Below the pieces are notes generated by a model, which had not been told where the DNA came from, searched no databases, and was given only the letters and a program-made list of their open reading frames with translations. From the NCBI GenBank assembly GCA_014905635.1, contig JABVCE010000003.1:930001-994000 (forward strand): a stretch of DNA of 64,000 nt, written 5' to 3'. This DNA is from Scenedesmus sp. PABB004 (lineage: Eukaryota). Below are positions 1-64,000 of the stretch, in pieces. Position 1 is the first letter of the stretch, and every line of letters begins with the position of its first letter. The position numbers and the translations under genes are program-made.

Positions 1-2593
1 GCCGCCGCTCCGCCTCCTTGGCGGCCGCCGCGTCGGCCGCGGCGCGCGCGCCCGCCGCGTCGGCGGCGGCGCGCGCGGCCGCGAGCGCGGCCGCGCTTCG
101 CGCCTCGGCCGCGGCGAGGAGGCCTTCGAAGTAGGCCCGCTGGCTGTCGAGCTGCGTGGTCAGCAGGTAGTTGTACTCGGTCGTGATGGCGTCCAGCTTG
201 CTGCTCACAATGACGTCCTTGACCTGCTGCGCCTCGTCAGCGCACACCGGGCAGCCTGCGGCCGCGCCGCCGCAGTCGCCGGCGCCGTCGTCGCCGTCGT
301 CGTCGCCGTCGCCGCCGGCGGCGCCGCCCGCGCCGCCGCTCGAGCACGCGCCGTCTCCCGGCGGCGGCGCGGAGCCGCCGCTGCGCGCGCGCGCCAGGTG
401 GTGGCGCCGCTGCTGCGCGGGGCTGCCGTGGCTGCACGCGGGCGCGGGCGACGGCACCTCCACCAGCTTGCCGTCCGTCTTGGACTGGATCAGCCTGCCC
501 GCCCGGCGCGGCGCGGGGCACGGCGCGGCGGTGGGCGCGCTGCGGTGACCGCGCCGCGGCTGCACCGTCTTTGCCGCGCCGCGCCGCGCGCCCGCACCGG
601 TGCACGTAGCCGTCGCCCGCGTAGTCCCACACGCGCTGCGTCTCCAGCTCCAGCGCGTAGCAGTGCGCCGACTCCTGCCAGTGGTCCGACGCGTGGCCCT
701 GCTTGTACCTGCGGCGCGGCACAGCTCGGGGTGACGCCGCCGTCGCGTGCGCGGCGGCGCGCGCGCGCGCGCTCGCTGCCATGGGCCGCGTGCGGGCCGC
801 TGCGGCGCGCCGCCGCGCCGCGCAGGGGCGCATGCGCTGCGCGCGCACCTGCCGCAGCCCACGTGGCCGCAGATGAGGCAGATCCAGAGGTTCTGCCCCG
901 TCCCGCACGCGGCGCAGCGCGACGTCGGCGCGGCGCTGCCGGCGAGCATGCAGTAGCGGCACACGGGGCAGGAGGTGTCGCCCCAGCGCTTGAGGCACTC
1001 GCCGTGGAAGCGGTGGTTGCACACCTGGCCGCGCCGCCGCCGGGGCGCGGCGGCGGGGGGCGCGGGGCGGTGCGCGTGCGCGGGCGGCGCACGTGTGCGC
1101 GGGCGGCGGCGTGGAGCGGGGCGCCACGGCGCGCGGCGGGGGACGGCCGCCGCACCGTGGTGACCACGCCGCTGATGTGCTCGTCGAGGCGCTCCAGGCA
1201 CACGGGGCAGGTGGGCAGCTCGGTCGTGCCCGGCGGCGGCTCCAGCCACAGCAGCGCTGCCGCGGCGGCGGGGGCGACCGCGACCGCGCCGCTGGCCACG
1301 AGCGCGCCGCCGCCGCCGCCGCCGCCGCCGCCGGACCGCGGCGAGCCGGGCAGGCCGGACGCGGCCGCAGCCGCATAGCTCTGCTGCCCGCCCTCGCCCG
1401 CGCGCGGCGACGCGGCGGGGGCCTCGCCCCTGCCGCCGCCCTTGCTGCTGCTGCTGCCGCCGCCGCTGCTGCCGCTGCTGACGCGCTCCTTGCCGTTGGC
1501 CTGCCCGCCGGGCTCGCTCGCTGCCGCCGGCCGCTCAGCGTCTGCTCTGCTGCCCTGCTCCGCCGGCATGCCGCCGGCGGCCTCCGCTTTGCTGCTGCTG
1601 CTCGCGGGACTGCCGCCGCCGCCGCCGCCGCCGCCCGCCGCGCCCGCCGCCGCGAGCGCGGGCCGGCCGCGCGTCGACACGACCTCGACGCTGCGCACAA
1701 ACACCAGCCTGCGCGGGCGGGCGCGCGCGCGCGCGCGCTCGGCGCGCCGCCGCGCCCCGTGCCCCGCGCAGCTGCGCCCCGCGCCCCGCGCCCCGCGCCC
1801 CGCGCCCCGCGCCCCGCGCCCCGCGCCGCCGCGCCCCTGCGCCGCTGCGCCGCCGCGCCTGCAGGGGATGTCCGGCTCGAGGCTGGAGAAGGGCAGGCCG
1901 TTGAAGTCGGCGTGGAACGCCTCGGCCTTGTCGGGCGACGGGAAGGTCAGCAGCACCATGCACACGCTCGGCTGCGTGCCCTCGCGCCGCAGCACCTGCG
2001 CGCGGCGCGGCGCGCGGCGCTCGGCGGCGGCGCCGCGCCCGCGCGCCTGCTGCGCGGGGCCGCCCGCCCGCCTCGCCCCACCCCGCGCGGCCCGCCATTG
2101 CGCGCGTCTCCCGGCGCGCCTGGATGGCGGCGACCTCGCTGAGATAGGCGCCGATGAAGGTGCAGAAGTGCGCGACGCTCATGTCGGCGGGGATCGCGAG
2201 GCAGCACACCGTGGAGCTGGCGCCGCCGCCGTCGTCCTCCTGCGCCGCGCCGCACGCGCCGGGCCAGCCGGCTCGGCGCGCGCCGCGCGCCGCGCAGCGG
2301 CAGCAGCGGCAGTGGCGCGCCGCCGCGCGCCGGAGCCCGCCGCGGCGCGCACGCACCCGGTCGCCTGGAGGCGTGCCCGGCAGCGCTCCCGCCGGCGGCG
2401 CGGCGCCGTAGGCGGGCGCGTTGCGCTTGTAGAGGTGGACGAGGCCGGAGATGTGCTCCACCCGCGGGTTGCCGAAGCTGAAGCTCACGCACTCGCTCTC
2501 CAGCGGGCCCCGGAAGACCTCCTGGTAGCCCCCGTCGTCGCTGTGCAGCTCCGCCATCGCGCGCGACGCGGCCTCGACGCGGATCGTGTACAT
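1..2593 (-). CDS. BRAP: BRCA1-associated protein BRAP2/ETP1-like RING + zf-UBP E3 ligase (multi-exon, 3' end runs off the window)
   Basis: ATG at 2593 (MYTIRVE...[19 protein letters not shown]). BRAP2 domain: [81 protein letters not shown]. zf-[38 protein letters not shown]. Coiled-coil tail: [18 protein letters not shown]. Confidence 0.93.
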
Positions 2594-3024
2594 CGCGCGC
2601 CTAGCGCGCGCCCATGGCGCTGTCGGAGGCCCACCGAGCGCCGCCGACGCGTGCGCGAGGGCGCCCGGGCCCGGCTCTGGCTTGACGAGCGGCGGGGCAG
2701 CGGGACGCGGCGCTGCGGCGCCGCCGCGCTGTGCCCTGGCGAGTAACAGGCCGCGCTGGGGCCACCCGGCACCGCACGGCGCTCTCCCGGCCACACACAG
2801 CGCTGCGCAGCGGCAGCGGAACAGCAGCCGCGCCGCGCCGCGCGCAGCAGCAGCAGCGGCGCGCCCGCCGCAACCGCCGCGGCAGGGGGCGGCCGGGCTT
2901 TTCCCTCCGGCGGGGCCGTCGCCGCGCCGATATCCCGGGGCTGGGGCGGCGGGGCGGCGTGAGCGGCCGCGTGTGCGGCCCGGGGCGGCGAGCAGCGGCG
3001 CCGGTGCGCCGACCCCCAGCAGCG

Positions 3025-61878: not shown

Positions 61879-62185
61879 GCGCGTGGGGGAACAGCGTGAG
61901 CAGCGTGCAAACGGGGGCCCTGCAACACGGGCCGCGCGGTTGCCGGAGCGACGACGGCTCGTGTTACGATTTGAACCCCGCCGTGCCGCCGCCAGCGCTG
62001 CGCGTCGCGCCATGAGCCCGCACAGCTGCCGTGGGTGTGCGTACTCATCGCCCGGGGCGGGCGCAGGCGTCACGCACCGACAGCCGCGCCGCCTGCTGCT
62101 CCTGCCCGCCGCGGCCCGCTCCCACCTGGGCGCGCGCTGCCGCCCCATGGAAGCGCTGGCGTAGGCTCTGCCACTCGTCAGAGCG

Positions 62186-64000
62186 ATGGGCGAGCAGCAG
62201 CAGCACGGCGCCGGCGCCAGCGGCGCCGCGCCGCCCGCCGGCGCCGCTGCTGCGCCCGGCGCGGCCGCTCCGGCGCCCGGCGCGGCGTACCAGGTCGCGG
62301 GCTTCGAGGTCCGCTTCCCGCACGAGGCGTACGGCGTGCAGAAGGTGTTTATGAACCAGGTGCTGCGGGCGATCGACCACGAGGAGAACGCGCTGCTCGA
62401 GGCGCCGACGGGCTGCGGCAAGACGCTCTCGCTGCTCTGCGGCGCGCTGGCGTGGCAGAGCGCGCAGAAGGCCAAGCGCGCGGCGGCCGAGGCGGCCAAG
62501 CGCGCGGCGGCCGCGGCGGCGGGCGCCGGCGAGGAGGGCAAGGGCTGCTTCGCCGACGCGCAGCAGGCCTGCTGCGCGGTGCCCGCGCCCGGCGCGGCCG
62601 ACGCCGACGACGCGTCGCCCCCGCCGCCGGACGAGCCCGTGACGGTGCCCAAGATCTACTACGCGACGCGCACGCACTCGCAGATCGCGCAGGCGCGGCG
62701 CGCGCAGGGGCGGCCGGGAGCGCAGCGCGCGCAGCGCGCACAGCGCGCGCACCGCGCACGCTCACCAGCCGCCGCCGCCACTGCCCTGGCAGGTGGTGCG
62801 CGAGCTCAAGCGCACCGCCTACCGCCCCAAGATGACCGTGCTGGTGCGCCGCCGCCGCCGCCGCCCGCCGCCCGCCGCCCGGCGCGAGCGCCTTGCAGGA
62901 CGCGGCCGCGCGCGCTCACCCGCCGCGCCCGCCGTGCGCCGCGCCCGCCGCCCGTTCTGCAAGGGCGCGCGGTCGCACTACTGCATCAACCGCGCCGTCG
63001 TGCGCAGCGGCGCGATCGACGCCAAGTGCGAGGAGCTGCTCAAGGAGCGGTCGGGCTGCCCCTACAAGAAGAACGCGGTCACGCTCACGCACGGCGTCGT
63101 GCAGGCGCGCCGCCGCCGCCGCCGCGCCGCGCGCCGCCGCCCGCCCCGTGCGCGCGCGCGCGCGCCACGGCCCCCGCGCTGAGCTGCCGCTCCGGCGCCT
63201 GCGGCGCGCCGGCAGGTGCACGACATCGAGGACCTCGCGCGCATCGGCACGCGCCGCAAGGCGTGCCCCTACTTTGCGGCGCGACACCTGGCCGACAGCG
63301 CGGAGCTCGTCTTCTGCCCCTACTCGTACCTGCTCGACCCGGGCATCCGCCGCGCGACCAAGGTGCAGGCAAGCGACGCGGTGCTCATCTTTGACGAGGC
63401 GCACAACATCGAGGACCAGGCCAGGCGCGCGCCGCCGCCGACGCGGCGAGCCCTCCCTGCGCCGCGCCGCGCCGCGCCGCGGCGAGCGCGCGCGCCGCGC
63501 CACGTGACGTGACGGCCGCCCCTCACGTGCCGCGCGCGCCAGGGAGGCGGGGTCGACGGAGCTGGACCTGGAGCAGCTCAAGCTCACCTTCCTCTCGCTC
63601 TCGCGCGCGGCGGCGATGAGCAGCGAGGCCGAGACGTACACGCCGCTGCGGGACGCGGTGCTCGCGGTGCGCCGCCGCGCTGCCGTGCCGCTTGCTGCTG
63701 CGCGTATGCGCCGCCGGCCTCGCTGCTCAGCGGCCGGCCGCGCGCGTGGGCACCGCGTGCCCACGCCGCGCCGCCGCGCGCCCGCGCCACCGCCCAGGTG
63801 ATCCAATGGCTCATTGGCCTCGCCGCCAACGGCGCCAGCTCCCCGGGCTTCAAGCAGTCCGGCTTTGAGCGCTTCGAGCGCATCTGGCGGGCCCGCCGGT
63901 GCGCGGCGGCGGCGGCGGCGGCGCGGCCGGCCCGCCCGCGCCGCCCGCGCGCCGCCTCACGCGCGGCAACCGCCGCGGCCGCGCGGCGGCCCCGCGCGCC
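62186..64000 (+). CDS. BRIP1: XPD-family Fe-S DNA helicase, FANCJ/BRIP1-like (RTEL1 not excluded); 5' part only, runs off the window
   Basis: Q motif VRFPHEAYGVQ, Walker A LLEAPTGCGKT, IYYATRTHSQIAQ, Fe-S cysteines RSHYCIN/KCEE/GCPY/ACPYF, FCPYSYLLDP, IFDEAHNIED. Confidence 0.9.

Follow-up and report, generated by a model that had tools for sequence, protein, structure and literature searches.

Spliceosomal introns that begin with GC in place of GT and end with AG (GC-AG introns) account for 1.2% of plant introns on average (PMC6310983). Much larger shares have been described in Aureococcus anophagefferens (39.6%), Micromonas pusilla (22.2%), and Chlorella sp. (7.7%) (Iwata & Gotoh 2011, PMC3033335), and in Emiliania huxleyi ~56–60% of the donors are GC (PMC4028052). 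High genomic G+C content has been linked with many GC-AG introns (PMC3033335, PMC4028052), the 5' end of U1 is canonical in Aureococcus and M. pusilla (PMC3033335), and orthologous intron positions in plants often switch between GC and GT (PMC7072748). Here, we describe GC-AG introns in a 64-kb window, the whole stretch of DNA that was analysed (assembly GCA_014905635.1, contig JABVCE010000003.1, positions 930,001 to 994,000), from the green alga Scenedesmus sp. PABB004. About 14% of the introns in this window are very probably ordinary U2-type introns with a GC donor, most likely derived from GT by a T-to-C change at the second intron position (+2) under GC pressure.

The window belongs to the nuclear genome of a scenedesmacean green alga with an extremely high G+C content. 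The genome of Scenedesmus sp. PABB004 has a size of 39.8 Mb and a G+C content of 78.5%, compared with ~56% in most Sphaeropleales (PMC12571836), and may hold the record for G+C among eukaryotic nuclear genomes. The window has 78.5% G+C throughout. GC is its commonest dinucleotide (21.4%), AG makes up 4.8% and GT 3.4%; its introns contain 45% C and 7.9% T, and A occupies 2% of the third codon positions. With G+C well above 60% and 19–20 GC-AG introns among 140, several-fold over 1–2%, the window shows the pattern of the GC-rich algae. As in the algae of PMC3033335, high G+C is accompanied by a GC-AG share far over 1%, the acceptors are canonical AG, and introns with GC and GT donors show no difference in length (median 124 and 117 nucleotides (nt) in the window, respectively). 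Unlike in Aureococcus and M. pusilla, the genome is much GC-richer and the GC-AG share is lower (~14%), and the lineage is chlorophycean (Sphaeropleales) and lies outside that survey. In E. huxleyi, GC donors are likewise ascribed to genomic GC pressure and GT-only predictors give wrong models, but GC is the majority donor there, whereas in the window it is a minority donor limited to sites with an exonic AG. The GC-AG introns of the window resemble those of plants and animals in being U2-type with the rest of the donor near consensus (PMC6310983, PMC7072748); on the other hand, they are roughly ten-fold more frequent than the ~1.2% usual there. The phenomenon is already known, and the window presents it in a chlorophycean lineage with far higher G+C and a moderate GC-AG share. 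No literature was found on GC-AG frequency in the Scenedesmaceae or in this strain; the per-species supplementary tables of PMC6310983 and PMC7072748 may hold related algae.

In DNA of this composition, each junction offers 10–190 frame-preserving GC...AG combinations. Such pairs occur nearly everywhere, and therefore a test independent of choosing sites by eye is needed. The genes of the window were modelled by dynamic programming, in which codon scores were combined with weight matrices for donors and acceptors and each splice site carried a fixed prior cost. The codon log-odds were trained on the window itself and both matrices on GT introns only. With +2 priors of 0.91 for T and 0.03 each for C, G, and A, the model gives 140 introns, 115 with GT and 25 with GC donors, and none with GG or GA. 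The 25 GC introns include all 20 sites listed by an earlier sequence-only reading, which had counted "about 18" such donors; all 20 of its coordinates are GC on the proposed strand, and the introns end in AG. The five extra GC donors (17192, 34433, 35915, 43630, and 55409) were dropped as noise, with a support of 0.7–1.9 nats and a different dinucleotide in a control run that allowed 16 donor dinucleotides. A further candidate at 18443 was also dropped, as the exon continues to a GT donor at 18584. The control run (priors of 0.85 for GT and 0.01 for each of the others) gives 113 GT, 19 GC, and 8 other donors, no other dinucleotide being used more than twice (CG 1, CC 2, GG 0). Removing the three exonic positions from the donor matrix retains 19 of the 20 sites, and in this model AG precedes 18 of 26 GC donors, where composition predicts 4.8%; for the GT donors the count is 33 of 113. 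The total score is 4903 with GT and GC donors and 4573 with GT donors only, a loss of 330 nats. Forbidding the 20 sites singly costs 2.0–9.7 nats each; the replacement is a GT donor in three cases and another non-GT donor in the rest.

Homology backs 16 of the 20 junctions. At these sites, removal of the GC-AG intron restores a frame colinear with orthologous proteins, as judged from gapless orthologue alignments at 12 junctions (four in eIF2B-epsilon, three in FANCJ, two in BRAP, and three in CDKAL1, with up to five homologues) and from profile continuity at four (24217, 32537, 33297, and 54519). A control GT junction behaves alike (Cupin_8 positions 138 to 139). In addition, six of the GC junctions lie in the two genes of the deposited proteins P0001 and P0073, which use every one of them. 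Three of the introns, 21050–21164 (115 nt), 32537–32673 (137 nt), and 62693–62792 (100 nt), contain no GT at all and have lengths that are not multiples of 3, exactly as had been read from the sequence; the introns at 1858 and 19672 are also free of GT, bringing the total to five. The GC share is thus 20/140 (14%) for the modelled introns and 16/140 (11%) for those backed by homology, in line with the earlier hand count of more than 10% of ~130 introns. At the plant rate of 1.2%, the binomial probability of at least 16 in 140 is 2e-11. These results confirm that the predicted GC-AG introns are real and occur at about ten times the usual rate, far beyond chance. The accompanying expectation that gene finders would mis-annotate such genes stands as far as the GT-only model is concerned, given its loss of 330 nats, but not for the two deposited proteins. 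Since P0001 and P0073 use the GC junctions, the public annotation already admits GC donors in these two genes.

Over the 20 GC donors, position -3 is C in 75%, A in 15%, and G in 10%, -2 is A in 95%, and -1 is always G; within the intron, +3 is G in 85% and A in 15%, +4 is C in 90% and A in 10%, and +5 is always G. This upholds the consensus first proposed, (C/A/G)AG in the exon followed by GC(G/A)CG, and the core motif can be written GC(G/A)(C/A)G. The GT donors of the window have an unusual consensus of their own, GTG(C/A)G, with G at +3 in 97% and at +5 in 93%. An exonic AG precedes 19 of 20 GC donors (the exception, 33297, is preceded by CG) compared with 36/115 (31%) of the GT donors (Fisher p = 6e-8). 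Put differently, GC is used at 19 of 55 donors that follow AG and at 1 of 80 others. Phase 0 is found in 17/20 GC and 53/116 GT introns; this bias arises because third codon positions are 2% A, so that A at -2 is nearly excluded in phase 1. The numbers of pairs with the canonical U1 5' end are similar, 5.4 for GC and 5.6 for GT donors, counted with the general donor consensus; the U1 5' sequence is that quoted in PMC3033335. The remaining positions of the GC donors fit the major-type consensus, with an exonic match stronger than in the GT donors, and none of the 20 is a U12-type donor or resembles the ATATCC consensus quoted in the same source. The GC donors look like those of ordinary U2-type GC-AG introns. 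They occur in 10 of the 23 intron-bearing genes with slight clustering (permutation p = 0.02–0.05), and all but one of these genes belong to recognisable conserved families.

The ancestral state was approached through metagenome relatives. Metagenome contigs were scanned with one FANCJ exon; of the 80 loci returned, most lack introns or belong to distant relatives (at most 60% identity). Five loci that share intron positions (L062, L072, L074, L078, and L080) were picked by eye from the tblastn table, leaving out the L074-like L075 and L076, and their junctions were placed by spliced alignment with eight donor dinucleotides allowed. For 62693, the best junction at the corresponding position is GT in all four loci resolved (L062, L074, L080, and L072), and for 63425 it is GT in both (L074 and L078, which are near-identical). 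In all, the six resolved locus-positions for the two GC sites carry GT in relatives with 30–69% GC. The position matching the window's own GT donor at 62844 is GT in 3/3 loci, and for 63105 (residue 233) no junction could be resolved in any of the five. These relatives lend direct, if narrow, support to the loss of an ancestral +2 T.

A mechanism can be proposed on this basis. Ancestral GT donors would have become GC by T-to-C change at +2, driven by the strong GC-ward pressure that shaped the whole genome, and the changed base would last only at donors whose other positions still pair well with U1, through an exonic AG and G at +5. The lost pairing at +2 would be offset by the exonic AG, and under such compensation GC donors should be nearly confined to sites that follow AG. 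The erosion of ancestral donors would also account for a higher frequency of GC donors in conserved genes with old intron positions. T is kept at +2 in 86% of the donors although the introns have less than 8% T. Without selection, C would prevail at +2. The +2 T is clearly held by selection and relaxed only where flanking pairs compensate. From these observations we infer the direction of the change, its cause, and the compensation through U1 pairing. The suggestion in the sequence-only reading that GC pressure eroded the +2 U agrees with the GT found in the relatives and with the published link to G+C content (PMC3033335, PMC4028052). Its companion suggestion of a special tolerance in U1 or U6 is unneeded, as the GC donors follow the exonic AG and pair with U1 about as well as the GT donors do.

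Several other explanations have to be weighed against this erosion of GT donors. It could be argued that in DNA of 78.5% GC the GC...AG fits are due to chance, the true donors being GT or the models wrong: GC is a far commoner dinucleotide than GT (21.4% and 3.4%, respectively), frame-compatible combinations abound at each junction, and the model itself made five extra GC calls of just this kind. However, the control run picked CG, almost as common as GC, once and GG never, against 19 times for GC, and five introns hold no GT at all. The AG stands before GC donors even when the exonic bases are hidden from the model. The 16 junctions supported by homology largely refute a chance origin for those sites, and overall we regard it as highly improbable. 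Base errors in the assembly, with T read as C, have nothing specific in their favour beyond the difficulty that extreme GC poses for some sequencing chemistries; they would require twenty independent errors, all at donor +2 and 19 of them after AG, a context on which genuine GC-AG introns are known to depend, and their probability is close to nil.

An altered 5' splice-site recognition in this lineage, in the form of a variant U1 5' end, U6 ACAGA box, or U1C/U5 proteins, could license GC donors as well. The rate of about ten times that of plants generally (PMC6310983) speaks for it, and base modification or U1 small nuclear ribonucleoprotein (snRNP) proteins have been proposed for Aureococcus and M. 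pusilla (PMC3033335). Nevertheless, the GC donors of the window show the compensation usual for this type, an exonic AG together with G at +5; the acceptors are canonical, and the retention of T at 86% of the donors, against 7.9% T in introns, is a sign of ordinary selection for +2 U. Aureococcus and M. pusilla, with still larger GC-AG shares, have a canonical U1 5' end (PMC3033335), and we consider an altered spliceosome unlikely. At gathering thresholds, an Rfam search of the entire window had no matches, and no small nuclear RNA gene was found in the window. Another proposal is that selection maintains the GC donors as purposely weak sites for regulated intron retention in particular housekeeping genes, with which their presence in 10/23 intron-bearing genes, the slight clustering, and the 9 of 20 intron lengths divisible by 3 would agree. 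The clustering is weak and would also arise if it is the old, conserved positions with AG before a G that tolerate the change; we consider regulated retention very unlikely. More speculatively, the loss of +2 T at about one third of the sites that follow AG and about 1% of the others might serve as a natural titration of the need for U1 pairing, and the lineage may carry a changed component of 5' splice-site recognition with a greater tolerance for +2 C; we give this a small chance.

Some observations weigh against the erosion reading or narrow it. The motif of exonic AG followed by GC(G/A)(C/A)G occurs on the sense strand of the modelled genes 19 times as a used donor and 38 times unused, and therefore other signals must contribute. 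The junctions are known here from the sequence, the model, and homology, and the count of 140 introns is the output of a home-made model trained on this window. The predicted introns at 3232, 12097, 29245, and 57261 are drawn from the gene model and sit in variable or terminal regions; a lenient Pfam scan of their flanking exons gave no usable coordinates. At 3232, the 16-dinucleotide run took an AA donor at 3220 instead. The GT found at orthologous positions concerns 2 of the 20 sites, in one gene and in metagenome relatives, two of which, L074 and L078, are near-identical. GC content alone is no predictor of GC donors, the genome being GC-richer than that of Aureococcus or E. huxleyi and yet having fewer of them. 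Finally, we infer that the window speaks for the genome, of which a single 64-kb window in 39.8 Mb may be unrepresentative.

The GC-AG introns are distributed along the window as follows. The BRAP2-like gene on the minus strand contains two, both chosen by the model. The intron at 1709..1858 has no frame-compatible GT, and its junction aligns without a gap to both P0074 and P0075 and matches the deposited P0073 exactly; that at 1996..2119 is gapless against P0074 and joins Pfam BRAP2 positions ~39 and 42. The TFIIE-alpha-like gene has a predicted GC-AG intron at 3232..3372 (+), called by the model at a cost of 5.8 nats when forbidden; the junction sits in a variable region and is kept in the exonic-stripped model. 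In the hemerythrin-domain gene, the predicted intron at 11984..12097 (-) appears in all three model runs (5.3 nats). Its sole GT alternative is a 54-nt intron with coding loss, and the downstream exon has no profile match.

The eIF2B-epsilon gene (+) holds four GC-AG introns, all of which are gapless against P0002, the orthologue from Tetradesmus obliquus (~57% GC). A protein search with one exon found a 100%-identical deposited protein of 928 residues, translation initiation factor eIF-2B subunit epsilon from Scenedesmus sp. PABB004. For the first intron, 18895..19070, coding potential alone favoured 18940, but homology decides for 18895, and the same junction is present in the deposited P0001. 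The second, 19672..19760, has no GT and is used in P0001; it is followed by a 120-nt exon at 19761–19880. The third, 20752..20875, is also used in P0001, and its sole GT alternative deletes 14 codons. The fourth, 21050..21164, is the GT-free intron of 115 nt and has no frame-compatible GT. Two other features of this gene were observed. A 120-nt GT-AG intron at 18206–18325 (+) is read through in frame by P0001, adding 40 residues that neither the Tetradesmus orthologue P0002 nor the gene model contains; this error arises because the intron lacks stop codons and not because of GC donors. Inside the last intron, 21427–21524 (+) drops below 50% GC, as does just one other stretch of the window, and contains the word TACTAAC, and an Rfam search at this place with E up to 1 gave no match.

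The inositol 5-phosphatase-like gene has a GC-AG intron at 24089..24217 (-) without a frame-compatible GT, across which Pfam Exo_endo_phos2 continues from 231 to 232. A 355-nt intron of the same gene includes a long (AC)n/(GT)n microsatellite (24586–24731), which on the coding strand creates dozens of frame-compatible GT decoys. A helical-repeat gene with no Pfam family carries the predicted intron at 29245..29338 (+), called in all three runs at 9.1 nats; when it is forbidden, the model turns to a 61-nt GT intron at 29278. The Na+/H+ exchanger gene (+) contains two. The intron at 32537..32673 (137 nt, no GT) joins TIGR00840 positions ~127 and 133, and its GT alternative at 32524 is far off consensus; that at 33297..33419 lacks the exonic AG and joins TIGR00840 positions 283 and 284, and the GT alternative at 33246 means a loss of 17 residues.

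The CDKAL1-like methylthiotransferase gene on the minus strand has three GC-AG introns. That at 50441..50556 is gapless against P0084, P0086, P0091, and P0092, while P0089 shows a 4-residue gap just past the junction. The intron at 51242..51376 links TIGR01578 positions 235 and 236 and is gapless against four homologues. At 52262..52507, which is preceded by a 72-nt exon (52508–52579), TIGR01578 runs from ~50 to 52 and the alignments with P0086, P0089, and P0092 are gapless. In the amino-acid permease gene (+), TIGR00907 passes from ~145 to 143 at the intron 54519..54706 (9.7 nats when forbidden); the predicted intron at 57261..57404, in the C-terminus, falls past the end of this profile and was called by the model in all three runs (6.3 nats).

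The three GC-AG introns of the FANCJ-like helicase gene (+) are all gapless against P0007 and P0008. They are located at 62693..62792 (100 nt, no GT), 63105..63215, and 63425..63542, the last in phase 2. A frame-keeping GT lies 6 nt upstream of the second at 63099, and its use would mean the loss of two conserved residues. The 63099 GT and the 63105 GC are possible alternative donors with a two-residue difference, of which the orthologues favour the GC. Among the returned proteins of 122–2000 residues, no 100%-identical deposited protein was found with a FANCJ exon. An Es2-domain gene (60166–61878, +) lies directly upstream of the FANCJ-like gene (region 60166–63898), and in the homologue P0008 a single model of 1267 residues carries both an Es2 and a helicase domain. 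This suggests either that the neighbourhood is conserved and the prediction fused two genes, or that the genes are truly fused in a relative. Elsewhere in the window, two neighbouring modelled genes at 5891–6919 and 9731–10990 (+) share the same five-exon layout with identical splice-site contexts (for example, 6745/10537 and 6650/10442) and thus make up a tandem duplication; neither matches a Pfam family.

For the annotation of the PABB004 genome and its relatives, GC donors must be admitted, as a GT-only model breaks conserved genes. The window is also a clear-cut case of selection opposing mutation or conversion pressure at a single splice-site base. The exceptions obey a simple rule, an exonic AG and mostly phase 0, that is testable genome-wide and across the Scenedesmaceae, which span 56–78% GC.

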